The position numbers were made by a program, and so were the translations under genes. Positions 12,917 through 30,650 of a stretch of DNA of 42,243 nt are shown piece by piece. Origin of the DNA: Deltaproteobacteria bacterium (GTDB lineage: Bacteria; Desulfobacterota; Syntrophia; Syntrophales; UBA5619); contig JAFGRP010000025.1 of assembly GCA_016935075.1 (NCBI GenBank), positions 1 through 42,243 on the forward strand, given 5' to 3'. The notes beneath the pieces were generated by a model, which ran no database searches, had not been told where the DNA came from, and worked only from the letters and a program-made list of their open reading frames with translations. The stretch's first letter is position 1. Each line of letters begins with the position of its first letter.

Positions 12917-12917
12917 C

Positions 12918-13421: not shown

Positions 13422-13571
13422 CCCTCTCCTTAGTACCTTATCCTTATATGGCGCAGTACTACGGTGCTGCGCCATATAAGGATTTCATAAACTTTCCCTA
13501 ATGTTGCAACATGGTCTAACCGGAAACGGACAAGCGGTTAGTTTACCCTCGCCCTTTTTTGCTCCCGGGGT

Positions 13572-15270: not shown

Positions 15271-17217
15271 CTATATCTCCCGTGCAATCCGTGCGGCATC
15301 GGCAATGGCCGCCAGGGCGTTGGCCGGCTTGAGGGCGTCTCCCACCACATGGACTTGAGCAACTTTACCCTCCAAGGTTCTGGCCAATTCGTCGCGGGGT
15401 CTTGCGCCGACGGCCAGGACCATCGAATCGAAGGAACCGATATTCTTTTTTCCGCATTCTTTCCCGTTCACCATGACCCCATCGCCGGACACGCGCTCCA
15501 CCTTGGTGGAGACGAATATTTCGACACCGTGATCGGAGAGACATTGATTCATGTATGGTTTTCTCACGATACCGATTTCTGACGCGATTTCGTCCAACAT
15601 CTCGACGACGGTCACTTTTTTCCCCTGTTCCGACAGAAATTCTGCGGTCTCGATGCCCACCATCCCGCCGCCGATCACGAGCACCCTGTTTCCGACATTA
15701 CCTGCATTGCCCGCCAGAACGTCATGCGCGGTCACGACCTTGAGATCCTCCGACCCGGGGATTTTGAGGAGGATGGGCGTTACGCCCGTCGCAACGATTG
15801 CGACATCCGATCCCGCCGCCGCAATATCTTCCGCCGTCGCCTTTTTGCTGAGCAAAACCTTTACCCCAAGCTTTTCGATCTGGTTTTTGTACCAGCGTAT
15901 CACTTCGAGATATTCCTCTTTACGGGGGGGAACACAGGCGAGGATCCACTGGCCGCCCAATCGATCCGTCTGTTCGTAAAGCGCCACATCATGGCCCCTC
16001 AGTGCGGCGACCCTCGCCGCTTCCAGACCGGCGGGTCCGCCGCCGATCACAGCGACTTTTTTCGGACTCTCTGTCTTGGTGATTTCGTATTCATCCTCCT
16101 TGCCCACTTCAGGATTGTAGAGGCACGTCCAGGATCTCCCGGCCCGGACCTCGTCGTAACATCCCTGGCAGCATCCGATACATCGCCGTATTTCGTCCGG
16201 GATGCCATCGACAACCTTCTTCGCCCAATCGGGATCACAAACAAGCGCCCTGCCAAGGCCGATGATGTCGGCCTGTCCTTTTTCCAGAATCTCTTCCGCT
16301 TGCCGGGGAGTGATGATTCTCTGGACAACGATCACGGGTACATCGACGAACGGTTTGATCTGCGCGACGAGGTCCACGATACAGCCTTGACCCGCATCGA
16401 CGGGGGGCATACCAAGGTGCCTCACGTGATGCCCGGCGCCGGCGGTAAAGTGCAGGGCGTCCGCACCCGCCTCGACCAGCATGGGCGCCATCCTTTTGGC
16501 CTCTTCAACCGTAATCCCCCCTTCGACGAGATCCGAGGCCACCATTCGGAAGACCACCGGATAAGCCCTCCCGGTCCTCTTCTTGATCCGCTTGACGATC
16601 TCCAGGGGGAATTTCATGCGGCCTTCAAGACTGCCGCCGTACTCGTCGGTCCTCTTGTTGAAAAGCGGCGTCATGAAATTCTGCACGAGGAATCCCTGCA
16701 CCCCCTGAATTTCGACCATGTCCGCCCCGGCTTCTTTTGCCCGGGCGGCGGCGGCGGCAAAGTGTTCCACGATCTCCTCGATCTCCCCTTTGGTCAGGGC
16801 GCGGCATTTCTCCCCCGTGACCGGGGAAACCATCTCCGATGGCGCAACGGCCTCGGTATGCGTCACGTGGAAGTGGGATTGACTCCCGGCGTGACACAGC
16901 TGCAGCGATACCTTCATGTCGTAATCGTGCATGGCCGCCACAAAGTCTTTCCATGCCGGAATGAACCTGTCGTCCCAAATTGCGTCGTGACGATCCTCAG
17001 GTTGGACATTCGGCATGATCGTACAATTGCCCACAGTGGCCAGCGCGATGCCGCCCTGCGCACGCCTCAGATAGAACCGTTTTTCCTTTGCCGTAACGAA
17101 ACCGTCCGCAGCTCCCAGACGCGTGACCATGGGCGCCTGGATAATACGGTTCTTCAACTTGACGGAACCGATTTGAATCGGAGAAAATAGACGATGGAAA
17201 TCCCGCTGATTCGACAT
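15271..17217 (-). CDS. OYE-family FMN / [4Fe-4S] / FAD-NAD(P) oxidoreductase (2,4-dienoyl-CoA reductase / enoate reductase family)
   Basis: 648 aa. The N-terminal OYE barrel is LFSPIQIGSVKLKNRIIQAPM. The FadH-type cluster motif is C-IG-C-CQG-C-x11-C (RCIGCCQGCYDEVRAGRSWTCLYNP). The Rossmann motif is KKVAVIGGGPAGLEAA, with a second GxGxxG (RVLVIGGGMVGIE). Confidence 0.9.
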   Translation of the reverse strand: MSNQRDFHRLFSPIQIGSVKLKNRIIQAPMVTRLGAADGFVTAKEKRFYLRRAQGGIALATVGNCTIMPNVQPEDRHDAIWDDRFIPAWKDFVAAMHDYDMKVSLQLCHAGSQSHFHVTHTEAVAPSEMVSPVTGEKCRALTKGEIEEIVEHFAAAAARAKEAGADMVEIQGVQGFLVQNFMTPLFNKRTDEYGGSLEGRMKFPLEIVKRIKKRTGRAYPVVFRMVASDLVEGGITVEEAKRMAPMLVEAGADALHFTAGAGHHVRHLGMPPVDAGQGCIVDLVAQIKPFVDVPVIVVQRIITPRQAEEILEKGQADIIGLGRALVCDPDWAKKVVDGIPDEIRRCIGCCQGCYDEVRAGRSWTCLYNPEVGKEDEYEITKTESPKKVAVIGGGPAGLEAARVAALRGHDVALYEQTDRLGGQWILACVPPRKEEYLEVIRWYKNQIEKLGVKVLLSKKATAEDIAAAGSDVAIVATGVTPILLKIPGSEDLKVVTAHDVLAGNAGNVGNRVLVIGGGMVGIETAEFLSEQGKKVTVVEMLDEIASEIGIVRKPYMNQCLSDHGVEIFVSTKVERVSGDGVMVNGKECGKKNIGSFDSMVLAVGARPRDELARTLEGKVAQVHVVGDALKPANALAAIADAARIAREI

Positions 17218-17306: not shown

Positions 17307-19367
17307 TTATCCTACGGCATCTTCCGATTCGGCAATATTCCTGCCGCTTTCGTCCAGAAAATGTTTAACTTCCTCCTGGTCCACATCCAGCTTGTCCATT
17401 TCGACCAGAGGCGCCTGCTCGGCCCTCTTGCAGATCAAAGGAATGGGCGAAACCGGAAGGAAGAAATGGGAGAGCAGACCGATACCGACCAAAACGAACC
17501 CGATAAAATCGGTCATCAGACTTGAAGACATCAGGAGCAAACCTCCCCCGAAAAAGAGAAAACGCTCAAGCACCGTTGTCGGTCTTTTAATATGGCCGAA
17601 TGTGGCCGCCTCGATAAAAAACATCGCCACCATGCAACCGATCAATACCCTCAGCGATTCCATCACTGTACCTTCCATGAGTATGGCAGGTTGAAAAATG
17701 AAAAAATAGGGGACGATATATCCGCCGAGGCTCAAACCCATGGCATAAACGGCAACACGCAACCAGGATCCTCCCGATATGGCACGCGCCGTGAAAACAG
17801 CCACGCAGACGGGCGGCGTGATTGCCGCCGCGATCGCGAAGTAGAAGATGAACAGATGCGTAGCCAGCAAGGGCAAATCCAGGCTCTTCATGATCGGCAT
17901 CAAGGCGGCGGCGGCCACCACGTAGGCGGCCGTCGTCGACATGCCCATGCCAAGGACGATTGCGACGATCATAACGCCAAACAGGGCGTAAATTTTTATC
18001 CCTCCGGCGATTTCCATGATGAACTGGGAGATCATGATGCCGAATCCCGTCGCGTTGATGATGGTGACCACCACCTGGACGCAACTCATCATGACGACCA
18101 GCATGACGAGAGACCCGTTGACGCCGCTGTAAAACGCCTTCAAAATTCCCTTGACCCTCGGCCATATTACCGAGGGTTTCCAGGAACCGTAGAACAGAAA
18201 AATGGCGATCGCCGAAATCATCGCAATGGCGCCGCATTTCTCAGGCTGGACATAGGTTATCAGCAGATACACCAGGAGCCCGATGGGTACGACCGTGCCC
18301 AGAATTTCTTTCAGATTCGACAATTCCTCGGCCTTCGGAATCAGACGGGTCGGGAGCTTGCCCAAACCGTTTCGCCCGGCGAGACAATAGACCCCGGCGG
18401 CGATTCCGAATACGAAACAGATGGAGGGAATGATCGCTGCCTTCACGACCGAGGCGTAGCTGATGCCCACCAGCTCCGCCATAATGAAGGCGCCGGCCCC
18501 CATGATCGGTGGCAGGATCTGCCCGCTGCAGGATGCCGCCGCCTCGGTCCCGCCCGCAATTTCCGGTTTGTAGCCGAACTTCTTCATGGTGGGAATCGTG
18601 AAAGTCCCTGTCGTGGCGACGTTTGCCACCGTAGCGCCCGTGATCATTCCCAAAAATGAGCTCGCAATAACGGCGATCTGCGCTGCGCCACCGCGAATCC
18701 TGCCTCCAATGAAACGAGACAGTTTAATGAAGAAGCTGCCAAGACCCGTCGCAAAAAGGACCGGGCCCAAAAGAATAAAAATGGCGACGAGACGGCTGAC
18801 CATATCCGTCAGGACTCCCCAGACGCCCTCTGTTGTAAGATAAAAGACGTAAAACAGTTCGTAGACGGGGTAATGGGCATGGCCCCATTCGCCCGGGATA
18901 TGATGGCCGAGCAGCATGTAGGCGGTGAAGACGCCTACCAGAATGGGAACCATGATCCCGATGGTCCTCCGCGTCGCTTCAAGAAGAACGAAAAACAGTA
19001 TCCCGCCGAGGTAAAGATGGTACGTCTCAAAGCTGAACGGCATGAGAACAAACGTTTCCCAGAAAAGGCTGATGATCAGGCAGGGAACAACCCCCATAAC
19101 CGTCAAGAGAATATCCAGCACCGAGGGATAATTTTTCGTTCCGTAGACCAACAGGGCGCAGGATTTCGACTGTTCTTCCGCAAGATGACGTTTGCTCATG
19201 GGGAAATTGATAAAAACGATGGACAAACCCATGGCCACCATCAACGAACCCTGAAGAGCGGGGTGAAAGGCGCCCAGCAGACAAGTCCCGATTACGAAAA
19301 CGACAGTGATGACCGTAATGACGACCGTGTAACCCATCCAGAATCCGGTAAGATTTCTTTTGTTCAT
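17307..19367 (-). CDS. TAXI-type TRAP transporter fused (4TM/12TM) permease
   Basis: 686 aa from ATG 19367 (MNKRNLTGFWMGYTVV...), preceded by GGAGG about 11 nt upstream. It is polytopic throughout and sits downstream of a TAXI binding protein gene. The track start at 19451 adds an Arg-rich non-membrane leader. Confidence 0.9.
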   Translation of the reverse strand: MNKRNLTGFWMGYTVVITVITVVFVIGTCLLGAFHPALQGSLMVAMGLSIVFINFPMSKRHLAEEQSKSCALLVYGTKNYPSVLDILLTVMGVVPCLIISLFWETFVLMPFSFETYHLYLGGILFFVLLEATRRTIGIMVPILVGVFTAYMLLGHHIPGEWGHAHYPVYELFYVFYLTTEGVWGVLTDMVSRLVAIFILLGPVLFATGLGSFFIKLSRFIGGRIRGGAAQIAVIASSFLGMITGATVANVATTGTFTIPTMKKFGYKPEIAGGTEAAASCSGQILPPIMGAGAFIMAELVGISYASVVKAAIIPSICFVFGIAAGVYCLAGRNGLGKLPTRLIPKAEELSNLKEILGTVVPIGLLVYLLITYVQPEKCGAIAMISAIAIFLFYGSWKPSVIWPRVKGILKAFYSGVNGSLVMLVVMMSCVQVVVTIINATGFGIMISQFIMEIAGGIKIYALFGVMIVAIVLGMGMSTTAAYVVAAAALMPIMKSLDLPLLATHLFIFYFAIAAAITPPVCVAVFTARAISGGSWLRVAVYAMGLSLGGYIVPYFFIFQPAILMEGTVMESLRVLIGCMVAMFFIEAATFGHIKRPTTVLERFLFFGGGLLLMSSSLMTDFIGFVLVGIGLLSHFFLPVSPIPLICKRAEQAPLVEMDKLDVDQEEVKHFLDESGRNIAESEDAVG

Positions 19368-19466
19368 AAAAAACGGCGCCTCCGTTGCTCTCCGATCCCC
19401 TCGCAGTTGGGTATTGCCGGGGGAACGACCTGCTCTGTTTTCAGGAAGCAAGTCCTGCTGAATAAC

Positions 19467-19533
19467 CTGTTCCTGCGGGAGCCGGCGATCCCGTTTTTGA
19501 AAAAACGACGGGTATAGGCTCTCGCAGGAACAG
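19467..19533 (-). promoter_or_regulatory. 17-bp intercistronic stem-loop between the lipoprotein/TAXI-SBP genes and the permease gene
   Basis: CTGTTCCTGCGGGAGCC (19467-19483) pairs with GGCTCTCGCAGGAACAG (19517-19533) at 16/17 positions. The loop itself holds CCCGT...ACGGG. Hairpins after binding-protein genes commonly set the SBP:permease mRNA ratio. Confidence 0.5.
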
Positions 19534-19556
19534 ATATTATGAAATGGAATTTCCGC

Positions 19557-19958
19557 TTATTTTAATTTCATGGGAACCTTGCACTGCGCTTTGCTTCCCT
19601 TGTTCCCGTTCGCGTAAAGGTCCCATGTCCCTGGAACAAGAACCGCCTTGTCCGGATAGGCCGATTTTCTCTGAAGTGTGCCCTTGTCTGACGCGACGAC
19701 GGGCTTGTTTGCCTGTTCGCCGATAAGCATGGGAAGACCGTTTATATTGAGTTCCAGTTCTATGGTTTCGCCGGGCTTGAAGCCTGAACCCGTGATGAGC
19801 ATATCCGCCTTGGGGAGTCCGGTTCCCGTGACGGATATCTGGGCGGCTGATCCCGCGGATTCCTTGACTGGCATCGTGGAACAGGCGGAAAACAGGAACA
19901 GCCCCAAAACGATCAAAATTCCCGCGTAACGGTACGAGGTCCTAAAACGATTATTCAT
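19557..19958 (-). CDS. small lipoprotein of unknown function embedded in the TAXI-TRAP operon
   Basis: 133 aa from ATG 19958, with AGGAGG 8 nt upstream. The lipobox is MNNRFRTSYRYAGILIVLGLFLFSA-C. The mature part is beta-rich (ISVTGTGLPKADMLITGSGFKPGETIELELNINGLP), suggesting an Ig-like fold. Confidence 0.7.
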   Translation of the reverse strand: MNNRFRTSYRYAGILIVLGLFLFSACSTMPVKESAGSAAQISVTGTGLPKADMLITGSGFKPGETIELELNINGLPMLIGEQANKPVVASDKGTLQRKSAYPDKAVLVPGTWDLYANGNKGSKAQCKVPMKLK

Positions 19959-19994
19959 CGCACACACCTCCTTTAATGTCTTTGGATGCCCTGA

Positions 19995-20978
19995 CTATTT
20001 CGCTTCGGGCGGGATCAGTTTGTCGGGAATCTTGTAGCCGAGTTCGGTGTAGGCCTTCACCGCGCCCTTGTGCAGGGGCACGTTTACATACTTGACCGTT
20101 TGTTCGAACATCTTCGCCCACTCCCCGACTTTGGTTACCTGGACGGTGTCGGCGATTTCCTTTCGATGGGAATATGCCGACTTTACGATCTTGTAGATGA
20201 CGTCCTCGGGAACGCTGGTGTTGGTGTAGTCCCCGCAGGTATATGCCTGGAACATCACGTCGTTCGGTTGATCCCTGTACGTTTTGGCAGGCAAAATATA
20301 GGGGATCGCATGGTTGGGAAATGCCTTTTCCATGATAGCCAGTTCTTCTTTTGTGGTTCCCAAAAATTTCAGTTTCTGCACAGCCTCGATTTCCAGAACC
20401 GAGGCATCAAGGGGCCCAATCCGATAATAGGCGTCGATCGTACCACCTTTCATCGCATCGATGGTGGCGCTGGTCCCCATGAGCTTGAGATCCGGTTTGA
20501 TACCCAACGAATCCCATAATCTTTTAATGATAATGGCTCCGTAGGTGCCCGGTATAAAACCGACACGCTTGCCGTGAAGATCGTGCATGGTCTCAATCCC
20601 CCTGCCCGCGATGGCAATGTTCATGATGGGACCTACGTATCCGCCCCAGAGGCTCCGGATCGTCGGAACGGGTTTCCCTTCAAACTCTAAGATTCCCTTG
20701 TACATCGCATACGCACCGATATTGTTTGTCAGACCGACCTGACAAAGGCCTCTTGAAACACGCACCAAATTGTCGAGCAAACCGCTGGTTTCCATGGGAA
20801 CGATGGAAACCTGCCCTTTCAAGTCCTGGTTCACGTAGCGGGCAAGCGTGGCGACGTAAGTGAACATCGCGATACGAGGCGTCTGAGCCCCCCACTTGAT
20901 CCGGTACGCCTCGGCAAACGCGTCCGTGGAGAACACGGTTGCCAGGAAAATAACCGCCAATATCCATGTTTTTTTCAT
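19995..20978 (-). CDS. TAXI-family TRAP transporter solute-binding protein
   Basis: 327 aa from ATG 20978 (MKKTWILAVIFLATVFSTDAFA signal peptide). METSGLLDNLVRVSRGLCQVGLTNN...LHGKRVGFIPGTYGAIII...DAMKGGTIDAYY matches the TAXI (TIGR02122-like) pattern. Confidence 0.9.
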   Translation of the reverse strand: MKKTWILAVIFLATVFSTDAFAEAYRIKWGAQTPRIAMFTYVATLARYVNQDLKGQVSIVPMETSGLLDNLVRVSRGLCQVGLTNNIGAYAMYKGILEFEGKPVPTIRSLWGGYVGPIMNIAIAGRGIETMHDLHGKRVGFIPGTYGAIIIKRLWDSLGIKPDLKLMGTSATIDAMKGGTIDAYYRIGPLDASVLEIEAVQKLKFLGTTKEELAIMEKAFPNHAIPYILPAKTYRDQPNDVMFQAYTCGDYTNTSVPEDVIYKIVKSAYSHRKEIADTVQVTKVGEWAKMFEQTVKYVNVPLHKGAVKAYTELGYKIPDKLIPPEAK

Positions 20979-21198
20979 AATCATACCCTCCCTCTCAAAG
21001 CAATCTTTCTTTTGGTTTTCAAACCGTACACCCGGACCGAAACAAGCAATTTGCACTTCCGTTTCCAACCCCGCATTAAAAACCTCCGCAACATCGCTTA
21101 TATTGAAACGGGCCTCTTACAACACCGGCAGATGGAATGGAATAATTCCGCCTGCCGGTTGTTCATTTTCGGATTGCAGACCCTCTGCTGATAAGGGT

Positions 21199-21678
21199 TT
21201 ATGCCTTCGGAATCTGATTCTTCGTGAAATAGGTATAAGCCTTCCGCGTCGCTTCATCCGTCGCAACGAGTTTGAGCGCCTCCTGCCATTCGGGAGAATC
21301 CCACGACCCTACCGCCTGATGCGATGCCCAGAAATTGGAATCGATGGGGTGCGTTCCCATGACCACCTTCATCCCGTAGGATTTCTCGCAGAGGTCTTGC
21401 ATATATTTCAAGTTAGGGCAAGGCGGATATGCACAGTGGAAACCCGATGCAAAGAAGGCAAGTTCGATCCCCGCTTTTTTCCATTCGGCGAAGATCTTGT
21501 TGCCTGCGGACGAGTTACATCCGCTGCAGCCGACATAGGACACCAGTTCAAGGTCGACGTCCTTGTAAGGGGCAAACGCGCCTTCCCTGTCGTTTAATGC
21601 CCTGAAACACTTCATGCCGGGGCACCTGAAACAATGCTTTTCGCAGAGCAAAATACCGATTTTCTTTTTTTCTTTCAT
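21199..21678 (-). CDS. CGGC-domain protein (Cys-rich, unknown function)
   Basis: 159 aa. KIGILLCEKHCFRCPGMKCFRAL...VSYVGCSGCNSS...FHCAYPPCPN matches my memory of the CGGC domain family (the conserved GC-x-GC core is here GCSGC). Confidence 0.65.
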   Translation of the reverse strand: MKEKKKIGILLCEKHCFRCPGMKCFRALNDREGAFAPYKDVDLELVSYVGCSGCNSSAGNKIFAEWKKAGIELAFFASGFHCAYPPCPNLKYMQDLCEKSYGMKVVMGTHPIDSNFWASHQAVGSWDSPEWQEALKLVATDEATRKAYTYFTKNQIPKA

Positions 21679-21848: not shown

Positions 21849-21897
21849 TCCGGAGCGGCAAATCGATTTTTCCCGTTCTTCGGTTTGCCGCTCCGGA
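21849..21897 (-). terminator. 14-bp perfect stem-loop just downstream of the CitE-like gene
   Basis: TCCGGAGCGGCAAA (21849-21862) is the exact reverse complement of TTTGCCGCTCCGGA (21884-21897), with a 21-nt loop. It begins 11 nt after the stop at 21908 on the - strand. The U-tract is weak. Confidence 0.4.
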
Positions 21898-21907
21898 ATC
21901 CGTCCTA

Positions 21908-22804
21908 TTACCCCTTTTTCCGCATGGCTTCCATATCGGCGATTTCCTTCATGGTCGCCAGGATCTGCCGGGCATTCTCATAAACCGGCGTATCGACCAT
22001 CTTCCCCTTGTAGGAAACGGCGGCGGCGCCCTTGGCGATACCCTCTTCCTCGAAGATCTTCACGATGCCGGTCGCCCACTCGACATCGTCCGCCGACGGC
22101 ATGTAGAGCCGGTGCGAAGGCTCGATCTGGCTCGGATGGATCAGCATCCTGCCCTCATACCCCATCTGCCGGCCCTGCAGGACGCTCGCCTCGAACGCCT
22201 CGACGTTCTTGTAATCGACGAAGGGGCAGTCGATGGCAACGCAGCCGGCGGCGCGGGCTGCCACGGCGGTGTAGTAACGCCCGTAGAGCTGTTCGGTACC
22301 CTCGGAGGTCAGCTTCACCCGCATGTCCTTCGTATAATCCACGGCGCCGAAGATCAGCGAGTTCACCCGTTTGCTGGCGGTGGCCGAGGGGTAAGCGTTG
22401 GCCATCCCCTTGGCCGTTTCGATCAGAAGCTGAATGGCGATGCTCCCCACCTTGAGGCCCCTTCTGCGCTCCAGCTCCTCCAGCTTCCAGTCGAGCCGCT
22501 TGACATTGTCCGCCTCGCCGGTCTTGGCCAGACAGACACCGGAGAGCCCCTCATGGACGATCGCTTCGAGATCGTCGTTCGTCATCAGGGTTTCCCAGTT
22601 GTTGACCCGGGAATAGACCTTCGATCCGCCTGTTCCGGCGTGTTTGAGGTTTTCGCGGACGATTTCCCTGGCCTTCGGCTTTTCAGCGGGCGGAACGGAA
22701 TCCTCCAGGTCCAGGGTGATGATGTCCGCCGGAAATTCCGGCGCCTTGGCAACCATCTTTTCGTTGTTGCCCGGAACATAAAATACCGATCTCATAACTG
22801 CCAT
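21908..22804 (-). CDS. CitE/HpcH-family acyl-CoA lyase (citryl-/malyl-/citramalyl-CoA lyase-like)
   Basis: 298 aa. RSVFYVPGNNEKMVAKAPEFPADIITLDLEDSVPPAEK and ...MLIHPSQI are citrate lyase beta-like hallmarks. An RBS AGGAG lies inside the end of the upstream gene. Confidence 0.85.
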   Translation of the reverse strand: MAVMRSVFYVPGNNEKMVAKAPEFPADIITLDLEDSVPPAEKPKAREIVRENLKHAGTGGSKVYSRVNNWETLMTNDDLEAIVHEGLSGVCLAKTGEADNVKRLDWKLEELERRRGLKVGSIAIQLLIETAKGMANAYPSATASKRVNSLIFGAVDYTKDMRVKLTSEGTEQLYGRYYTAVAARAAGCVAIDCPFVDYKNVEAFEASVLQGRQMGYEGRMLIHPSQIEPSHRLYMPSADDVEWATGIVKIFEEEGIAKGAAAVSYKGKMVDTPVYENARQILATMKEIADMEAMRKKG

Positions 22805-22808
22805 AATC

Positions 22809-23747
22809 CTAATCTCCTTTCTTGACGTTGGGTTGTTTTACCCTCAATTTTCCCCGCTCTTTGAGTTCCCTGAGCTTCCCGGGGATCTCGTTGGGATTGT
22901 CCACCACGATGATCCCCGCTTCCCTGAGCCGTGTAATCTTGTCCTGAGTGGACCCGCTGCCGCGCTCGACAATCGCACTGGCATGGGAAAACTTCATCCC
23001 CGCCGGCGCCCATGCGCCGGACACGTAGATGATAATCGGTTTGGTAAATTTGCCGGCCTTGACCAATTGCGCCGCCTCTTCCTCGTGCGAACCGCCCATC
23101 TCGCCGAAGATCGCCATCACGTCCGTATCCGGATCTTCCTCAAACAGCGGCAGGACGTCCGCAAAGGACATGCCGGTGATCGGCTCCGTTCCGACATGAA
23201 GGACGGTACTGATGCCGAACCCCGCCTGGGTGATCACGTAGGGAAGCGTCCCCGACTGTCCGCCGCTGCGGGAGATGACCCCGACATGGCCGGGCACGAA
23301 ATGCCTGCCGGCGAATTCGACCGATCCGCCCAGCCAGCCCAGGGCGCCGATCCCCGGAGTATTCAACCCGATGGAACCCGGCCCCAGAAGCATCGCGCCC
23401 TTCCGTTTCCCGTAGGCGACCATCTCGAGAATATCGTACAGGGGAACGCGCTCGACCGGCATCACGATCCATTTGATGTCGGAGTCCAGCGCCTCGAAAA
23501 CGGCGTCCTTCAAACCCGTCCCCGGGATGAATGTCACGGAAACATCGAAGAGACCGTGGTTTTTCACCGCATCCTTCACCGTATTGTATACGGGGATTCC
23601 ATCCACCTCCTCGCCGCCGCGGCCGGGTGTGACCCCGGCAACCACATTCGTACCGAGGCGCCGCATGAACTTGGCCCGCATCGACCCTTCCCTCCCCGTG
23701 ATCCCCTGAACCACCACTTTCGTTGATTTCGTCAACAAGATAGCCAT
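22809..23747 (-). CDS. SucD-like CoA-binding (alpha) subunit of an ADP-forming acid--CoA ligase
   Basis: 312 aa from ATG 23747. ILLTKSTKVVVQGITGREG...VAGVTPGRGG aligns with the SucD N-terminus. VGVISRSGG and MKFSHASAIV align with the SucD phosphohistidine loop MGHAGAII. Confidence 0.85.
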   Translation of the reverse strand: MAILLTKSTKVVVQGITGREGSMRAKFMRRLGTNVVAGVTPGRGGEEVDGIPVYNTVKDAVKNHGLFDVSVTFIPGTGLKDAVFEALDSDIKWIVMPVERVPLYDILEMVAYGKRKGAMLLGPGSIGLNTPGIGALGWLGGSVEFAGRHFVPGHVGVISRSGGQSGTLPYVITQAGFGISTVLHVGTEPITGMSFADVLPLFEEDPDTDVMAIFGEMGGSHEEEAAQLVKAGKFTKPIIIYVSGAWAPAGMKFSHASAIVERGSGSTQDKITRLREAGIIVVDNPNEIPGKLRELKERGKLRVKQPNVKKGD

Positions 23748-23767
23748 ATTTTCACCACCTTTTCTGG

Positions 23768-24043
23768 TTAGGATATTCCGTGCTTCTTCCGGTACTCTTC
23801 CAGCCCCGGGATGGGCGCCTCGATCCGGATGGCCCCTTTCCCCCTGAACCAGCACTCATATTCACATGCCAGGCACTCCGTCCCGAGGCGCTTGGCATCC
23901 CCCTCCACGACGGGCTTGCCGTCCTTCAGAACCAATATCCCCCGGGCGTAGGTCTTGCAGGCTGCAATGCAGGCCTTGGATTCGCACTCCTTGCACTTTT
24001 CGTCATCGATGATGACTCTGATCGTCTGTTCTTGAAACTCCAT
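23768..24043 (-). CDS. 7-Cys ferredoxin-like small protein encoded between the two ligase subunits
   Basis: 91 aa with C17-x2-C20-x4-C25-x3-C29 and C57-x2-C60-x3-C64. It lies 12 nt after the SucC-like stop and 20 nt before the SucD-like start. Confidence 0.7.
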   Translation of the reverse strand: MEFQEQTIRVIIDDEKCKECESKACIAACKTYARGILVLKDGKPVVEGDAKRLGTECLACEYECWFRGKGAIRIEAPIPGLEEYRKKHGIS

Positions 24044-24055
24044 GGGTGGCCTCCT

Positions 24056-25309
24056 TTACCCTTTTTGTTCCTTCTTGTATTCGAGCACCATCTCCTTCAT
24101 CTCCGCGGCAAGCCCCAGCGTGTCGTATACGCGTTCACCGCCGTAGATCCGGATCCGGGCGTTGAGATCCTTCGTCCCCTCCCTCAAAATTTCCAATGAC
24201 TCCTTTTCCTTGTTGCCGGCCAAAAGCAACAGCACGGGGAATCCGGGACGCTTGGGAAGTTCCTCCCGGAGCGCCTTGACGACGCCGTGGGCGTGGTGCC
24301 ACTGCTCCTGATTGGCTGCCATGAAGCCGCCCAGCATGTAGCCGTCGATCCCAGGCTGGGAAAAGACGAGCTTGGCGGCGCGATAAACCTTGGAGGCCGG
24401 CGGATTGCCGCTCGTATCGGCGAAATCGGGGACCCTCAGCCCCTGTTTGTTGAGACCGTCGACGCCGAGCATGGCGCCGCCGCCGCCCATACCGTGATAG
24501 CCGATCGTCCCGAAGCACTCGCCCTGGATCCGGTTGTCCATCTCGGCAAAGTAGCAGGTGCCGCGCAGGTCCTTCTCCTCCACCCACCAGGCAATCCGGT
24601 CCAGTTCCGTGGGGGGGGTACCCGATTCGCGGGCCACCTCGATCCCCAGCTCCGGATGACGGATCACGGAAGAATCGTCTATGGAAATTCGGCAGTCGCC
24701 GGCCAGAACCTTCCCGTCCCTGGTGACGACCATGGGGTTGATCTCGATGAGACGGGCGCCATAATTCTTGAAGGTATCGTAGAGACCGACCATCAGCCGG
24801 GCCACCTGCGCGATGTGCTTGCTGGGCACCTTCACCTTGTTCGCAAGGTTGAGGGCATCGTAGATCTTGAAGCCGCGGATGACATCCACGTTCATCAGGG
24901 CGATCTTGTCGCCGGGGACCGACTCGATGTCCATGCCTCCCTCCGTCGAAAACATGACCACCGGACAGCGCGCATCCGCCTGGGCGTTGACGATGATCCC
25001 GGCGTAGTATTCCCGGTCGATATCCAACTTCTCCTCAACCAGGACTTTCTCCACCAGGTAACCCTTGATCGTGGCGCCGATCAGCAGGGCCGCCATTTTT
25101 TCGGCCTCCGCAGGCGTATCGGCGAACTTCACACCGCCCGCCTTCCCGCGGCCGCCGGTCCATATCTGAACCTTGATAACCACGGGCTTCCCGATCTTTT
25201 CCGCAATCTTTCCTGCCTCTTCCGGCGTCTTGGCCACATCCCCCTGCGGGATCGGCATCTTGGCAATCTTGAACAACGCTTTACCTTCATGCTCATGCAA
25301 TCGAGCCAT
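24056..25309 (-). CDS. SucC-like ATP-grasp (beta) subunit of an ADP-forming acid--CoA ligase
   Basis: 417 aa. RBS AGGAGGATGGT-ATG. MARLHEHEGKALFKIAKMPIPQG...VIKVQIWTGGRGKAGGVKF aligns with MNLHEYQAK...VHAGGRGKAGGVK of SucC. The C-terminal half is divergent. Confidence 0.85.
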   Translation of the reverse strand: MARLHEHEGKALFKIAKMPIPQGDVAKTPEEAGKIAEKIGKPVVIKVQIWTGGRGKAGGVKFADTPAEAEKMAALLIGATIKGYLVEKVLVEEKLDIDREYYAGIIVNAQADARCPVVMFSTEGGMDIESVPGDKIALMNVDVIRGFKIYDALNLANKVKVPSKHIAQVARLMVGLYDTFKNYGARLIEINPMVVTRDGKVLAGDCRISIDDSSVIRHPELGIEVARESGTPPTELDRIAWWVEEKDLRGTCYFAEMDNRIQGECFGTIGYHGMGGGGAMLGVDGLNKQGLRVPDFADTSGNPPASKVYRAAKLVFSQPGIDGYMLGGFMAANQEQWHHAHGVVKALREELPKRPGFPVLLLLAGNKEKESLEILREGTKDLNARIRIYGGERVYDTLGLAAEMKEMVLEYKKEQKG

Positions 25310-25403: not shown

Positions 25404-26063
25404 TTACTCGGCATTAATGCTGACCTTTAATAGTGTTACCGTCCTGTCGATGTGGGCTTTTAGACATTTTTTGGCATCTTCGTAGGACCCCACCTTGATC
25501 AAACTCAGAATTTGATGATGTTCTTCGATAGAGGGAGACGATGCGCCGGGTAAATATATGTACCTGAATTGATATCGGCGTAGAGTCGTTTCAAGCGACC
25601 TGTAAAATTTATTCAACCAACTGTTACCGGCTGCCTCTACGATTTTAGCGTGAAAGTCGAAAAATATCTTATGATGTCTCAAACGTTGATCTGTATCGTC
25701 TTTTGGTGAGATCGATAAACCGGCTAATATTTTTTGGATAGAAGAGGCTTCCGGAAGATCCGAGATTTTTTGTTCTTTCAAAAGATCAATCGCACAGCAT
25801 TCAAGCATTTCTCTGACTTTGTAAACCTCCTGGCAATCCCGAACCGTCAGTTTATTTACACAAACTCCTTTTCTGGGTATGCTTATTATCGCACGCTCAT
25901 GTTCAAGTATCCTAAATGCCTCCCTTATGGGCGGACGACTTATACCGAGATTTGAGGAAAGCTGACTTTCGGTCAGTTTCTGCCCGGGTCGCAGTTCTCC
26001 CGTAATGATTTTCGATCTTAAATAATCAACGATACTATCGGTGACGCTCAAAGGCTCTATCAT
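25404..26063 (-). CDS. GntR-family transcriptional regulator (FadR/FCD-type C-terminal domain)
   Basis: 219 aa. The wHTH LRPGQKLTESQLSSNLGISRPPIREAFRILEHERAIISIPRKGVCV is followed by an all-helical domain. The segment is markedly AT-rich. Confidence 0.9.
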   Translation of the reverse strand: MIEPLSVTDSIVDYLRSKIITGELRPGQKLTESQLSSNLGISRPPIREAFRILEHERAIISIPRKGVCVNKLTVRDCQEVYKVREMLECCAIDLLKEQKISDLPEASSIQKILAGLSISPKDDTDQRLRHHKIFFDFHAKIVEAAGNSWLNKFYRSLETTLRRYQFRYIYLPGASSPSIEEHHQILSLIKVGSYEDAKKCLKAHIDRTVTLLKVSINAE

Positions 26064-26296: not shown

Positions 26297-27688
26297 TTAC
26301 GTCAGGCCGGCCGGGGGCGGCAGCGGGACGTCCACAGGCGTGACAAAGCGGTTCACCGTCTCGAGGGTGCTGCCCACGTTGAGCTTCCCGAAAAGGAGCG
26401 CAAATTGCGCCTCCAGTTCCTTGCCAAGTGCCGTCCGGATCGTCTCCGGGAGATCCCACATCTCCCGTTTGAAGGGGCCGATCCCCTTCTTCCGGGTCTT
26501 GTAGAGGAACTGCTCTTCCGTATCGCTATCCTTCCGCTCGGAAGCCGCTTCCCGTTTCAGGTAGTCGTAGATCTGCCCGCGGAGCGCGGGCGGAAAATTC
26601 GGGCTGTCATAAACAATGTTCTGGAATCCCGTTGCCAGGTGGACCTCCGCCGTTCCCGTCGCGGGGAAACGGTCGAACGCCTCGTCTGGCAACGTGGAGG
26701 CGCCGTGCTGGACCGCGCCGGCCAGGCCGTATTCCTTCTTCGCCGCGGCGGAGAGCTTTTCGAGCGTGTCAAAATCGAGCTTGACCTTCGCGATACTCCC
26801 GTCGGCCAGGGGGATCCCGCCGTGGGTCGTCCCTGTCTGGATGCTGATCTTGCTGATCCCCTTCAATCCCGTTCCGCTCTTGCGGAGGGTTTCCAGATAC
26901 CCCTCCATGAAGGCGTGGAGCTCCTCGACCGTGCTGTTTTTCCCCCCGACCTCGCCGATCTCTCCGCCGACGGAGATCGTGATGCCCGCCGGTTCCAGAT
27001 CCCGGATCATCGTCGTCATTTCTGCGGCCAGGCCGTAGTTGAGTCTCTGCTGCTGTTTTACGGTCGCCTCCGCGAGATCGACGAGGGTCGAGGTGTCGAT
27101 ATCGATGTTGTAGAAGCCTGCGTCGATGGCCTCCCAGATGAGGTCTTTGACGGCCTTGACTTCGCCCCCCGGATCCTTCGCGTATTTCTTCGCCCCCACC
27201 TGGAAGTGGTCGCCCTGGAGGAAAAGGGGCCCCCGGTATCCCGTCTTCAGAGCGGCCGCCGTCACGGCGCAGGTGTACTCCGCCGGCCGCTGGCGGGTGT
27301 AATCGATCTCAGACCGCGCGATCTCGAAGATCATCGCCCCGACCCCGGAAACCTGAGCGGCCCGGAAAACGGCCTGGGCCGTGTCGTAGGTCAAGGCGCG
27401 GATGTTGATCGCCGGCACTGTAAACCCGGAAACCTCTCCCCGTCCCATCGCCTCGTAAAGCCCCTGAATCGAGGCGGATCGGATGCCCGCCGCCGCCCCG
27501 GACCGGCGGATCAGCCAACGGGCGGCCGCCCGCGTCTTCTCCTCGGGGGCAAATACCGCCGTCCAAATCAGATCGTCTATCCGCTCTTCCCGCAGACGTT
27601 TTTCATCCAGAATCCTGACGCCGTTTCCATTGAATGCCAGAGCATCCTCCATTGTCTTCTTCAGCATATCCGTATTATTGCAGATCAT
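26297..27688 (-). CDS. fba: class II fructose-1,6-bisphosphate aldolase family protein (long form)
   Basis: GFTVPAINIRALTYDTAQAVFRAA, LFLQGDHFQV (metal His), GGEIGEVGG, and VQHGASTLPDE. The 463-aa length is longer than E. coli FbaA, so the exact subclass is uncertain. Confidence 0.8.
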   Translation of the reverse strand: MICNNTDMLKKTMEDALAFNGNGVRILDEKRLREERIDDLIWTAVFAPEEKTRAAARWLIRRSGAAAGIRSASIQGLYEAMGRGEVSGFTVPAINIRALTYDTAQAVFRAAQVSGVGAMIFEIARSEIDYTRQRPAEYTCAVTAAALKTGYRGPLFLQGDHFQVGAKKYAKDPGGEVKAVKDLIWEAIDAGFYNIDIDTSTLVDLAEATVKQQQRLNYGLAAEMTTMIRDLEPAGITISVGGEIGEVGGKNSTVEELHAFMEGYLETLRKSGTGLKGISKISIQTGTTHGGIPLADGSIAKVKLDFDTLEKLSAAAKKEYGLAGAVQHGASTLPDEAFDRFPATGTAEVHLATGFQNIVYDSPNFPPALRGQIYDYLKREAASERKDSDTEEQFLYKTRKKGIGPFKREMWDLPETIRTALGKELEAQFALLFGKLNVGSTLETVNRFVTPVDVPLPPPAGLT

Positions 27689-27746: not shown

Positions 27747-28691
27747 TTATGATCCTGCTGCCAGAAATTCCATCGCCTTTTCCACCTCGAACCGGCTTCC
27801 GATATAGATCGGACAGCGCTGTTCAAGATCTTCCACCCGAACCGAGAGGATTTCCTCCTTGCCGTCCGTGGCAATTCCCCCGGCCTGTTCAATGATGAAG
27901 GCCATCGGCTGAAGCTCAAACAACAGCCGCAGTTTTCCGCGGGGGCTCTTTTTCAGTGCCGGATAGGTGAAAATCCCTCCCCGTTTGATCAGGACCTGGT
28001 TGATGTCCGGAACGAAACCGCCGCTGTAGCGCAGCTTGTATCCCTCCGCCTCGAGATACTCGAGAAACCTCACATGCTTTTCGATGCAATCCTTCCGGAG
28101 CCCTCCGGGGCTGTAGATGGAGCCGCGCTCCTCGAGCATGATGTGCTCCTGGGAAAGGACGTATTCCCCCTCCCGGTTCAGGACGAACTCGTGGGCCCCT
28201 TTGCCTGCGGAATAGACCATCGTGATGAGCGGTCCGTAAGTAATGTAGAGGGCCGCCACCATCGAATCCCTTCCCCGCGAGAAGATCGATTCCTTGTGGA
28301 TGCCGATGATCGTCCCGATGGCCAGGTTCGTGTCGACCAGGGAGGAGCCGTCCAGCGGGTCCGCCGTGACAAAGTATTTCTCCCGGCCCTTGCCGAGCAT
28401 CACGACGGCATCCTGCTCCTCCGAGGCGTACTCCCGGACGAAGCCCGAAAACTGAAGCTGGTTCTTCATGATCTCGTCCGAACTCCGGTCGAGCGAAAGC
28501 TGTTCCTCACCGTAGACGTTCTTGAAACCGGCCAGTTTCCGGTTCGATTCATGAATCTTGGCGGAGATATATTTTCCCGTCACCGCAATCTGCCAGATGA
28601 GACGGCGGAGCTCCTCCTCCACGCCGGCCATCCACATCTGGCGCCGCAGATCCACAGCAAATCTGGTGTAATCCGATATCCCCTCGCCCAT
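27747..28691 (-). CDS. fbp: class 1 fructose-1,6-bisphosphatase
   Basis: 314 aa from ATG 28691 (GGAGG RBS). VTADPLDGSSLVDTNLAIGTIIGI, YSPGGLR, and LRYSGGFVPDINQVLIKRGGIFTYPA...GKLRLLFELQPMAFIIEQAGG. Confidence 0.9.
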   Translation of the reverse strand: MGEGISDYTRFAVDLRRQMWMAGVEEELRRLIWQIAVTGKYISAKIHESNRKLAGFKNVYGEEQLSLDRSSDEIMKNQLQFSGFVREYASEEQDAVVMLGKGREKYFVTADPLDGSSLVDTNLAIGTIIGIHKESIFSRGRDSMVAALYITYGPLITMVYSAGKGAHEFVLNREGEYVLSQEHIMLEERGSIYSPGGLRKDCIEKHVRFLEYLEAEGYKLRYSGGFVPDINQVLIKRGGIFTYPALKKSPRGKLRLLFELQPMAFIIEQAGGIATDGKEEILSVRVEDLEQRCPIYIGSRFEVEKAMEFLAAGS

Positions 28692-28995
28692 GATTCTTTT
28701 CCTCCGTGAATTGATGAGAGATGCCGCCTGATCGACCCGCTGTAATCGTATCGTGTTTTTTAAAGCCCGACAAATGGTTTGCGTCGACTTTCTTTTCCGC
28801 CCCACGCTTTCTCAACAGAATATAGATAAAAAATTATCGGTCAGAATGCAACCTCTTTTTACCTCTTGTTTTTCGGGATGAGGGGAGGTCGGCTGACCAT
28901 CGCGGATTGGAAACCGATTCTGACTGATTCCGGCCGTTGTCTATGGGCAAATTTCGTGTAAACTTCTAACGGAAAAATCGTGGAAAGGGGAAACG

Positions 28996-29238
28996 ATGGA
29001 TCCTTTGCTGAAAATCGCGCACCGGGGATATTCCGCGAGATATCCGGAAAATACGCTTCTGGCGTTTAAGAAGGCCACCGCGGCCGGCGCGGACATGATC
29101 GAGCTCGACGTGCGCCTCTCGCAGGACGGACGGCTGGTGGTCATCCACGACGAGAGGATCGACCGCACGGCAAAACGGATTCAGCGGCTCCCGCGAACAA
29201 CCGATCCCGGGACCGCCCTCAATCATCGCCGAAACTGA
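28996..29238 (+). pseudogene. 5' fragment of a glycerophosphodiester phosphodiesterase (GDPD) gene
   Basis: [58 protein letters not shown] is the GDPD N-terminus (HRG..PENT..E.D). After about 58 aa the similarity ends, and the frame runs 20 nt into the 3' end of pfkA. Full-length GDPDs are around 240 aa. Confidence 0.6.
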
Positions 29239-30316
29239 TCCCCATATCGCGGGCGGTCAGGATCGAATCGGAATCGAGGGGCACCGATTTCATCTTTTCG
29301 ACGGCCTCCGCCAGCGGTACCGCCACCATATCCGGCGGCCGCAGGGCCACCATCACGTTGCGCCGGCCCTCCGCGATGAAACGGACGGCTGCGGCGCCGA
29401 AGCGCAGGGCTACAAGACGGTCGAACGTGGTGGGGGAACCGCCGCGCTGCAGATGTCCCAGAACCAGAGAGCGCGTGTCCTTTCCTGTACGCTGATGAAT
29501 TTCCCGGGCCACCCACTCGCCGATGCCGCCCAGCAGAACCTCCTGACGGCCCTCCTCCCCGGTTCCCTTGTGGACCAATTCGCCCCCCTCGGCCTTGGCC
29601 CCTTCCGCGACGACGACAATCCCGTAGTCCTTGTCATGCAGCTCATTGTCCATGATCTTGTTGCAGACGCTGTCGATCTTGAACGGAATCTCGGGAATCA
29701 GGATCGCATCCGCTGATCCGGAAATGCCGCTGTTGAGCGCGATCCAGCCCGCGTATCGTCCCATCACCTCGACCACCATCACCCGCTGGTGGGCACTGGC
29801 TGTGGAGTGCAGTTTGTCGATCGCCTCCGTCGACGTGGTCACCGCCGTATCGAAACCGAAGGTGATGACCGTACTGGCCAGATCATTGTCGATCGTCTTG
29901 GGTACGCCCACCACGGACATCCCCAACCCGGAGAGGCGGTGGGCGAGGCGCAGTGAGCCGTCGCCGCCAACGGCGATCAGAACATCCAGACCCAGACGCT
30001 TGAAGTTGGAGACGATTTTCGCGGAGACATCCCGGACCTCGACATCGCCGACGGCATTCTTGACAGGCATTGCAAACGGATCCCCCTTGTTCGTCGTACC
30101 GAGGATCGTTCCTCCCAGCGAGACGATGCCCGCCACCTTCTCGGGGCTCAGCCGGGTGATCTCATCGATATTGAACAATCCCTTATAACCGGTGTGGATT
30201 CCGTAAACCTCCCAGCCGCGGCGGTCGGCCGCCATCGTCACAGCATAGATGACGGCATTGAGTCCGGGCGCATCCCCGCCGCCGGTGTTGATCGCGATCT
30301 TCAAACGGTCACCCAT
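29219..30316 (-). CDS. pfkA: 6-phosphofructokinase, ATP-type signature (Gly at the E. coli G104 position)
   Basis: [45 protein letters not shown], and [10 protein letters not shown]. Confidence 0.9.
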
Positions 30317-30650
30317 TGCAGCCTCCTTATTTCAGTGGTGAATGATTATAACGGTCAAGCAACGGGGCGTCAAGAAATATGGCACGGATCATCCGCCCCG
30401 TACAATTGAAGATCTCCGCAGCAAGCTGCGAAGAATCTTCGATCCTTAAGGGGAACAAACCATCTTGATCTTCACGCGCCGGCACCGCGGCAAGCCGCGG
30501 GAAATTCTCTCGTGGGAGGATTCAAAGCGGCACCCTCGACTTCGGCAACCCCGGAAGAAAAAAGACCGGTGGGCAAATTTTCGTTCTGGTTTTCTTTTTA
30601 TATCTGTCATAAAATCGAGGCCATCCGGAAAATGGAAGGAGGGAATCAAA

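Follow-up and report, generated by a model that had tools for sequence, protein, structure and literature searches.

Ligases of the SucCD superfamily occur alone or beside acyl-CoA lyases in several described systems. Succinyl-CoA synthetase (SCS), as known from E. coli, Thermus and archaea, combines an ATP-grasp beta subunit with a CoA-binding alpha subunit that carries a phosphohistidine, and ATP-citrate lyase (ACLY) has the domain order beta-part, linker, alpha-part, lyase module. In H. thermophilus, citryl-CoA synthetase CcsAB, a two-subunit SucCD-like ADP-forming ligase, is paired with a separate acyl-CoA lyase of citrate-synthase fold, Ccl (6HXQ/6HXP), and in the serine cycle of methylotrophs malate thiokinase MtkAB is paired with the malyl-CoA lyase Mcl (4L9Y, 4L80, 5UGR), the SucCD-like ligase gene adjoining that of a CitE-superfamily lyase. 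Here we analyse a four-gene module at positions 21908 to 25309, on the minus strand, of a 42,243-nt stretch of DNA (the window) from a deltaproteobacterium of the Syntrophales (UBA5619; contig JAFGRP010000025.1 of assembly GCA_016935075.1). The module encodes a ligase related to SucCD and CcsAB, a lyase of CitE type and, between the two ligase genes, a small Cys-rich protein, and it is a candidate for the lyase and ligase of an anaerobic malyl-CoA pathway of glycolate metabolism. A preliminary description of the locus, made from the sequence alone, had known of no iron-sulfur (Fe-S) protein encoded between thiokinase genes, and this stands: the literature and solved structures that we searched describe neither the module itself nor any enzyme of this class with an Fe-S subunit or domain.

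All four genes lie on the minus strand. The first (24056-25309, 417 amino acids, aa) encodes a CcsA/SucC-like ADP-forming acid-CoA ligase beta subunit with an ATP-grasp domain (MARLHEHEGKALF..., GGRGKAGGVK), and is followed by the gene of the putative 7-Cys ferredoxin-like small subunit (23768-24043, 91 aa), by that of the CoA-binding, phosphohistidine-bearing alpha subunit (22809-23747, 312 aa from the ATG at 23747, MAILLTK...) and by that of a CitE/HpcH-family acyl-CoA C-C lyase (21908-22804, 298 aa, DLEDSVPP), which we propose to be a malyl-CoA lyase. The longest open reading frame (ORF) of the alpha subunit, 22809-23855, begins with a GTG (23855) that falls within the small gene; counted from the ATG, the intergenic gaps are 12, 20 and 4 nt, in agreement with the packing first described. 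A Shine-Dalgarno-like, purine-rich motif lies 5' of each gene, that of the beta subunit being AGGAGG.

The reading of the first gene as SucC-like and of the third as SucD-like, with its phosphohistidine context kept, is borne out. The beta subunit matches the Pfam family ATP-grasp_2 at 179 bits, with weak matches to Citrate_bind and Citrate_synth_N, and the alpha subunit matches CoA_binding, Ligase_CoA and Succ_CoA_lig, the His of its KFSHASAIV segment aligning with that of MGHAGAII in three solved SCS alpha chains. The best PDB matches by score were the Aeropyrum alpha chain for alpha (273 bits) and, for beta, Thermus SCS beta (214 bits), ahead of H. thermophilus CcsA (145 bits) and E. coli SucC (122 bits); against AclB the beta subunit scored 78 bits. 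On the NCBIfam equivalog models beta reached 235.1 bits for sucC (cut-off 370) and 164.7 bits for mtkA (cut-off 604), and alpha 271.1 bits for sucD (cut-off 336). A plain SucCD was rejected because both subunits fall under these cut-offs, in keeping with the earlier view that this is not a bona fide succinyl-CoA synthetase; membership of MtkAB was rejected on the mtkA score.

The C-terminal half of the beta subunit had been described as divergent from SucC. The motifs in question, GYHGMGGGGAML and DFADTSGNP, are indeed present, and they resemble CcsA (GGGG, GNPPAEKMY) rather than random drift. Alignment to 6hxq_B gives the acid-binding domain a CcsA-like character, with a PPTE..D.RG insertion, GGGG and GNPPA(S/E)K(V/M)Y. 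At the same aligned positions SucC has NGAG and GGGA, whereas the window protein has GGGGA and TSGNP. The SucC loops NGAGL and GGGA/V form its succinate site. In a neighbour-joining tree all ferredoxin-associated beta subunits form one clade, with CcsA as the next branch and then Thermus and E. coli SucC. From its sequence we therefore place the enzyme in the SucCD/CcsAB superfamily, as an ADP-forming acid-CoA ligase whose clade adjoins CcsA. The preliminary description had known of no other such arrangement, and in this it needs amending, as the ferredoxin-bearing clade is large. The acid pocket nonetheless differs from that of CcsA: the window protein has LLLAGNKE where CcsA has VVRRNGPE, so that the Arg pair of the VVRR segment, including its second Arg, is not kept, other pocket motifs differ as well, and an Arg present in the V-R-(R/L)-G-G segment of CcsA, of the sister clade and of SucC alike has been lost from the window type. 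We take the VVRR pair to be the counterpart of the citrate-binding Arg of ACLY. These ACLY/CcsA citrate-site positions are ambiguous as a guide to substrate, since the citrate-linked sister clade deviates there too. The alpha subunit differs from SucD by an insertion before SRSGG, which it has in common, together with an FSHA(S/G)A motif, with the alpha subunits of other ferredoxin-bearing clades.

The small protein has its Cys residues exactly where they had been placed (C17, C20, C25, C29 / C57, C60, C64), and its ORF is a real gene, because it has 285 homologues at E <= 1e-3 (mostly 91-95 aa), because 26 aligned sequences, down to 68% identity, agree in all seven Cys and throughout the block GTECLACEYEC, and because the ratio of non-synonymous to synonymous substitution (dN/dS) against 14 relatives is 0.05-0.17. 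A chance ORF was rejected on the same grounds. Pfam returned Fer4_11 alone, at 20.3 bits under a cut-off of 26.2, and NCBIfam nothing significant; compared with the canonical ferredoxin motif, there is no Pro after either Cys block and the spacing within block 1 is x4. Fused and many stand-alone relatives (58 of 139 representatives) have an 8-Cys pattern, CxxCxxxxCxxxC...CxxCxxCxxxC, like that of 2x[4Fe-4S] ferredoxins of the NrfC/PsrB type and of HdrA and DPD domains. Close homologues of the window protein have seven Cys in 117 of 120 cases, the first Cys of block 2 being replaced by Gly54, invariant in the alignment of the window family; the 7-Cys pattern is thus best described as derived from the 8-Cys two-block domain. 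Unlike those ferredoxins, the window protein does not have two complete four-Cys motifs and is tied to a non-redox enzyme. By analogy with dicluster ferredoxins, we assume that C17, C20, C25 and C64 would hold one [4Fe-4S] cluster, and that C29, C57 and C60 would form a three-Cys site, either [3Fe-4S] or completed by a non-Cys ligand.

The strongest indication of what the small protein belongs to comes from natural fusions. A profile search with the protein found 139 matches among 1.8 billion representative proteins; about ten of these are proteins of 470-540 aa whose C-terminal ~90 residues are the Cys domain and whose remainder is a SucC-like beta subunit. One of these (P0205) stands for a large sister family: more than 100 relatives are listed for it, which, but for one 460-aa partial sequence, are 508-558 aa long and align over 98-100% of its length; they come from Zixibacteria, Acidobacteriota, Gemmatimonadota, Anaerolineae, KSB1 and other lineages, and for this reason we regard the fusion as real and widespread. 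Two further fusions (P0170, P0173) are of the same subtype as the window's ligase and stand at the base of that subtype in the neighbour-joining tree. Because such fusions exist, there is strong evidence, at the level of sequence, that the putative Fe-S protein is a dedicated third subunit of the ligase, whose place is probably on the C-terminal side of beta. The AlphaFold2 model of the fused family alignment is confident (mean predicted local distance difference test, pLDDT, 91.7; predicted TM-score 0.79), the ferredoxin-like part (~428-520) included (pLDDT > 90); a Foldseek search with it against the PDB aligned ~410 of 521 columns with beta chains of SCS, citryl-CoA synthetase and ACLY and left the ferredoxin domain unmatched. 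The order of predicted secondary-structure elements in the small protein is compatible with a ferredoxin fold, and the Foldseek matches of its stand-alone model, though weak, are all ferredoxin domains (best E = 0.046, the HdrA ferredoxin domain); its sequence profile gave nothing significant against PDB sequences (best E = 0.88, NrfC). CcsA, a chain of 429 aa, has neither an Fe-S domain nor an Fe-S partner, SucCD has no such extra subunit, and we know of no Fe-S subunit of MtkAB.

Ligases that bear this domain occur in three contexts. In type I, that of the window, they are always found with CitE. In type II, the genes for a fused beta-ferredoxin chain and an alpha subunit precede those for a 258-aa protein above the NCBIfam cut-off for citryl-CoA lyase (238.8 > 212 bits), an uncharacterised 177-aa protein and aconitase, with isocitrate dehydrogenase (IDH) in one of the two loci (L085:8001-15133, with IDH; L088:8001-15111); this looks like a citryl-CoA synthetase/lyase system, and an Fe-S domain on a citryl-CoA synthetase appears undescribed. 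In type III, the genes for beta, a stand-alone 8-Cys ferredoxin and alpha directly follow a four-subunit 2-oxoacid:ferredoxin oxidoreductase (OFOR; L177:1991-7200 and L178), and neither locus has a lyase, an arrangement suggestive of an ATP-forming acyl-CoA ligase that is coupled to the OFOR and has the same kind of Fe-S subunit. Since it is present in all three contexts, the Fe-S module is a trait of the whole clade and not of one substrate. Types I and II differ in their acid-site motifs, GGFMAANQEQWHHAHG against GSGSGVASQEQFHSARG (AANQEQW against VASQEQF) and LLL(A/C)GNKEKE against V(I/V)RLGGNGE (LLLAGNKE against VRLGGNGE).

The type I module itself is widely conserved. In a scan of one genome per GTDB species, relatives were present in at least 269 species, and 80 loci were returned, all from metagenome-assembled genomes (MAGs), as were all related loci inspected unless they came from metagenome contigs. 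The 80 loci belong to Syntrophales, Syntrophorhabdales, Desulfatiglandaceae, Desulfocapsaceae (Desulfofustis sp. included), Desulfohalobiaceae and Nitrospirota, and essentially all of them, wherever the contig allows, have the order beta, small protein, alpha, CitE. The preliminary description had made much of whether the small ORF and the SucC-like/small Cys/SucD-like triplet were conserved, and both proved to be. An independent check on metagenome loci anchored on CitE agreed: where enough upstream sequence was available, alpha was present in 49 of 52, the small gene in 42 of 45 and beta in 33 of 35, the exceptions being a locus with an internal deletion and a further two or three in which an Fmt-like gene comes after CitE and no ligase lies upstream. 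Taken over 160 related loci, essentially every one keeps the gene order.

The neighbours of the module point to glycolate. Among the 41 GTDB loci that extend 4.5 kb or more to either side of the module, a GlcD-like gene was found in 35, usually immediately downstream of citE and on the same strand, a GlcF-like gene (Fer4_8 + 2x CCG) in 31, a GlcE-like gene in 22, the solute-binding gene dctP of a tripartite ATP-independent periplasmic (TRAP) transporter in 20, a GntR/FCD regulator in 19 and an Fmt-like formyltransferase in 17; GlcD or GlcE also accompanied 36 of 41 CitE-anchored loci. On the glcD equivalog TIGR00387 (cut-off 568) the neighbouring GlcD proteins reach 528-574 bits, the fused GlcDE of one Desulfocapsaceae locus (L080) being above the cut-off. 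In Desulfocapsaceae loci the genes run DctPQM, beta, ferredoxin, alpha, CitE, Thiamine_BP, methyltransferase, GlcDE, GlcF and pyruvate:ferredoxin oxidoreductase (PFOR). In this family a Thiamine_BP protein and a UbiE-like methyltransferase stand between citE and the fused GlcD-GlcE gene (L089:12192-13263, L080:12160-13251), and a second GlcD fusion, a 955-aa GlcD-GlcF protein, lies upstream with a TauE-like exporter. The Fmt-like formyltransferase (Formyl_trans_N + C; fmt 173 bits, cut-off 201.5) directly follows citE or lies beside the TRAP genes in roughly half of the related loci (L058:12630-13541, L089:6976-7893, L112:7227-8132, L162:7190-7801), and it stays next to citE even in two loci from which the ligase genes are absent.

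The fourth protein had been called a CitE/HpcH lyase, and it matches HpcH_HpaI (PF03328) at 137.7 bits. It shares the fold and the catalytic residues of CitE of the CitDEF system, CLYBL, RipC and 1SGJ, with a conserved Arg, the Mg-binding Glu and Asp, the ED pair and the C-terminal Asp all present: D32/E34/D35, R66, E129, D156 and D271 align with the catalytic residues named for the family (PMC3832036), a set also found in Mcl. Its best PDB match is 1SGJ from D. radiodurans and its third-best human CLYBL, it scores 133 bits on the RipC model, and its match to 4l7z stops at residue 170. On this evidence it is predicted to be a Mg-dependent CitE-family acyl-CoA lyase. Unlike CitE proper, it is paired with a thiokinase and not with an acyl-carrier/transferase system, and the module and its catalogued conserved neighbours include neither citD nor citF. 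It also differs from Ccl in having the CitE fold and not the citrate-synthase fold.

Because GlcDEF, GntR/FCD and TRAP genes flank the module in most relatives, we lean, on balance and with some reserve, towards its being the malyl-CoA lyase and the ATP-forming malate-CoA ligase of an anaerobic malyl-CoA pathway of glycolate metabolism. GlcDEF would oxidize glycolate to glyoxylate; the lyase would condense glyoxylate with acetyl-CoA to (S)-malyl-CoA; the ligase, through its phosphohistidine, would convert malyl-CoA, ADP and Pi to malate, CoA and ATP; and malic enzyme and PFOR would regenerate acetyl-CoA from malate. The thioester energy that malate synthase wastes would in this way be conserved as ATP. 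In E. coli, glcC-glcDEF is followed by malate synthase GlcB, and by analogy a CitE-fold lyase and a thiokinase would stand in the place of GlcB. Friedrich and Schink reportedly described the same route, from glyoxylate and acetyl-CoA via malyl-CoA to malate, ATP and CoA, with acetyl-CoA regenerated by malic enzyme and PFOR. The overall reaction, malate to malyl-CoA to acetyl-CoA and glyoxylate or the reverse, would be that of MtkAB and Mcl, but the beta subunit is nearer to CcsA, and in the window type, found in strict anaerobes, the ATP-forming direction is likely. The preliminary description had proposed a three-component thiokinase feeding a lyase; the components and the small protein as a conserved partner hold up, whereas the physiological direction is likely condensation by the lyase and then ATP formation by the thiokinase, although the reverse, malate to acetyl-CoA and glyoxylate, is chemically equally possible. 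It had also left the substrate open, rightly so for the sequence taken alone, which is ambiguous, but the gene context narrows the choice and points towards malate and malyl-CoA, with glyoxylate.

Phototrophs release glycolate as a major exudate, and its anaerobic oxidation via malyl-CoA with a gain of ATP has been worked out enzymatically in a few isolates. Listed as users of the pathway are Syntrophobotulus glycolicus, Desulfofustis glycolicus, Moorella and a Lachnospiraceae strain (PMC6313629); it has been described for S. glycolicus (PMC8092247), where a study that links it to ATP synthesis in Moorella (Sakai et al., 2008) is also cited. The Syntrophobotulus genome paper names no genes of the pathway, and in the literature that we searched no paper assigns lyase or thiokinase genes in Desulfobacterota or Syntrophales. 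Type I would supply the two central enzymes, within loci for glycolate uptake and oxidation, in Desulfocapsaceae, the family of Desulfofustis, and one of these loci (L073) comes from a Desulfofustis sp. MAG.

A number of observations weigh against the malyl-CoA assignment, and the gene neighbourhood is its sole source as far as the substrate is concerned. GlcDEF was not found within the 42-kb window, and GlcDEF-like flavoproteins of some Desulfobacterota are suspected of roles other than glycolate oxidation (PMC13101534, PMC13416013). Malic enzyme is not conserved near the module, the search of the neighbourhood having returned only housekeeping genes that the Syntrophales share, and the pathway as proposed offers no role for the Fmt-like gene or for the Thiamine_BP and methyltransferase genes often found with the module. 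A look-up of clusters and contigs for Desulfofustis glycolicus found only MAG and metagenome records, among them Desulfofustis sp. The C-terminal domain of beta is CcsA-like and its nearest sister clade is linked to citrate; the best curated family of the lyase is citE (TIGR01588, 204.5 bits, cut-off 443.4). Both known subgroups of malyl-CoA lyase, the R. sphaeroides and C. aurantiacus types, carry an insertion of ~30-40 residues after the sixth barrel strand (PMC3832036), which alignments to 4l9y and 5ugr show to be absent from the window lyase; if a malyl-CoA lyase, it would be of a third, independent type. With regard to the small subunit, its Fe-S binding is predicted from the Cys motifs, and the AlphaFold2 model of the stand-alone protein is poor (pLDDT 65.7).

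The main rival is a citrate-specific, split ACL-like system, in which the ligase would be a citryl-CoA synthetase and CitE a citryl-CoA lyase, working either in ATP-dependent citrate cleavage or towards citrate from acetyl-CoA and oxaloacetate with a net gain of ATP. Desulfobacter postgatei is reported to run ATP-citrate lyase in reverse in this way, with a net ATP gain. Such a system would account for the CcsA-specific motifs and the position of beta next to CcsA, for the weak Citrate_bind and Citrate_synth_N matches, for citE as the best family of the lyase, and for the type II loci, in which a fused sister-clade ligase lies beside citryl-CoA lyase and aconitase and, in one locus, IDH. The gene order, too, mirrors the domain order of ACLY, with the Fe-S gene in the place of the linker, although here the parts are separate polypeptides, similarity to AclB is low and the lyase is an unrelated CitE TIM barrel. 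Yet the window type, unlike its sister clade, does not stand in a tricarboxylic acid (TCA) cycle context: aconitase, IDH and a citrate transporter are not conserved near it, while GlcDEF, which would have no role with citrate, adjoins about 85% of loci, together with TRAP and GntR genes. The pocket motifs also depart from those of the citrate-linked sister, the Arg of V-R-(R/L)-G-G among them, and the citE score is far under its cut-off. We therefore consider citrate an unlikely substrate. In malyl-CoA an H stands where citryl-CoA has its carboxymethyl arm, and it can be argued that a shift from citrate to malate would be chemically small for both enzymes. Another 2- or 3-hydroxy di- or tricarboxylate, such as citramalate (via citramalyl-CoA, yielding pyruvate and acetyl-CoA), beta-methylmalate (yielding propionyl-CoA and glyoxylate) or an itaconate-derived acid, would agree with the RipC and CLYBL matches, with the setting of the window itself, whose TAXI-TRAP, CGGC and reductase genes of old yellow enzyme (OYE) type, with no GlcDEF, are not specific to glycolate, and with the promiscuity of CitE-family enzymes across malyl-, beta-methylmalyl- and citramalyl-CoA (PMC3832036). 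It seems quite improbable all the same, given that itaconyl-CoA hydratase and CoA-transferase are not conserved near the window-type module and that the conserved GlcDEF favours a reaction that yields or consumes glyoxylate; beta-methylmalyl-CoA would fit GlcDEF, but genes for handling propionyl-CoA are not conserved nearby.

Two further alternatives concern the parts of the module rather than its substrate. The small Cys protein could be a free ferredoxin that carries electrons for GlcDEF, PFOR or OFOR, enzymes beside which the module often lies, and the weak fold-search matches, all to ferredoxin domains, would suit that role. Against this stand its invariant place between beta and alpha, its covalent fusion to the C-terminus of beta in many lineages, the confident intramolecular model of that fusion and its retention where no redox enzyme adjoins (the window, L085, L088), so that we think a free carrier very unlikely. 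That the locus is an ordinary succinyl-CoA synthetase operon beside an unrelated small ORF and an unrelated lyase is suggested by the names of the best overall NCBIfam and PDB matches, which are succinyl-CoA synthetase subunits; with both subunits well under the equivalog cut-offs, TSGNP where two solved SucC beta chains have the GGGA loop, and the lyase and small gene strictly co-conserved with the ligase genes, a coupling that SucCD does not have, this can be considered extremely improbable.

The putative Fe-S subunit is kept on the ligase, split or fused, across at least three contexts. Neither proposed step is a redox reaction, and the subunit has no obvious chemical role in either. It derives from the 8-Cys, two-cluster domain of the CcsA-like ligase clade, and would most likely serve the structure of the enzyme, sense redox state, or dock or pass electrons to partners that depend on ferredoxin. 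Three roles would agree both with the fusions and with all three contexts: the subunit could form a structural cluster domain at the C-terminus of beta, sense redox state or O2 and gate the ATP-linked step, or provide a docking or electron link to PFOR, OFOR or GlcF. Fe-S clusters act as redox or O2 sensors in some non-redox enzymes. Taken further, one may tentatively, and with considerable doubt, picture a large and so far unrecognised clade of CcsA-like ligases with an obligatory Fe-S module that makes a step of substrate-level phosphorylation or ATP-dependent cleavage respond to the redox (ferredoxin) state of the cell or physically wires the ligase to ferredoxin-dependent oxidoreductases, a clade that would include malate-type ligases with CitE, citrate-type ligases with Ccl and OFOR-linked ligases, the window version being the as yet unassigned genes by which Syntrophales and sulfate reducers would oxidize glycolate anaerobically through malyl-CoA with a yield of ATP.

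The components and their chemistry are familiar, while the Fe-S subunit, the pairing with CitE and the gene assignment appear to be undescribed. The module thus provides a specific candidate for the lyase and thiokinase genes of the malyl-CoA pathway across the species-level genomes that carry it and, if the assignment is true, a marker by which anaerobic and possibly syntrophic turnover of glycolate could be traced in peat, sediment and digesters. The set of Fe-S-bearing ligases also includes putative citryl-CoA synthetases of the reductive TCA cycle in Zixibacteria, Acidobacteriota, Gemmatimonadota and Anaerolineae, which suggests an unrecognised regulatory or structural principle in the central carbon metabolism of anaerobes.

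In the window the module sits between a GntR/FCD regulator gene (25404-26063, minus strand; Pfam GntR + FCD), immediately upstream, and genes for a CGGC-domain protein and a TAXI-TRAP system. The regulator is of a different GntR/FCD type from those that adjoin the module in relatives, the 19 neighbours counted above having matched a query of the L058 type and not the window's own. The module genes have a GC content at third codon positions (GC3) of 0.73-0.80, against 0.42 in the adjacent regulator gene; the stretch similar in DNA to close relatives (84-90%) coincides with the module, running from 21908/21914 to 25320, and these relatives carry GlcDEF where the window has the CGGC and TAXI-TRAP genes. 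The GC3 contrast, the similarity ending at the module edges and the replacement of GlcDEF together suggest that the module was relocated or acquired as a cassette in this genome. Directly 3' of the citE stop, a stable hairpin (21849-21897, minus strand; -32.7 kcal/mol, z = -3.4; 0 of 200 shuffles fold as well) may mark the 3' end of the operon or stabilize its mRNA; no T-run follows the stem, hence it is not a classical intrinsic terminator.

Elsewhere the window is an ordinary Syntrophales-like chromosome, with Dxs, IspH, MetRS, phosphofructokinase (PFK), fructose bisphosphatase (FBPase), MeaB and two TRAP systems. The Cys-rich CGGC-domain protein (21199-21678, minus strand, 159 aa) is encoded directly downstream of the module and upstream of the TAXI-TRAP binding protein, and its gene is not conserved beside the module in related loci. 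Between the DctPQM TRAP genes (11603-14684, minus strand) and the TAXI/fused-permease TRAP genes (17307-21068, minus strand) lies a 648-aa fusion of OYE (Oxidored_FMN) and Pyr_redox_2 domains of the 2,4-dienoyl-CoA reductase type (15271-17217, minus strand), and a 136-aa lipoprotein-like ORF with no family match (19557-19967) separates the TAXI binding protein from its permease. On the other side of the module, a divergent and long (463 aa) class II aldolase-like protein (26297-27688, minus strand), with only 61 bits to F_bP_aldolase, adjoins FBPase and two phosphofructokinase-family genes on opposite strands (27747-28805, minus strand; 29219-31856). A 581-aa ORF (3651-5396, plus strand) joins LytB/IspH (residues 3-279) to a UbiA prenyltransferase (residues 314-546), an unusual fusion of an isoprenoid precursor enzyme domain with a membrane prenyltransferase domain.

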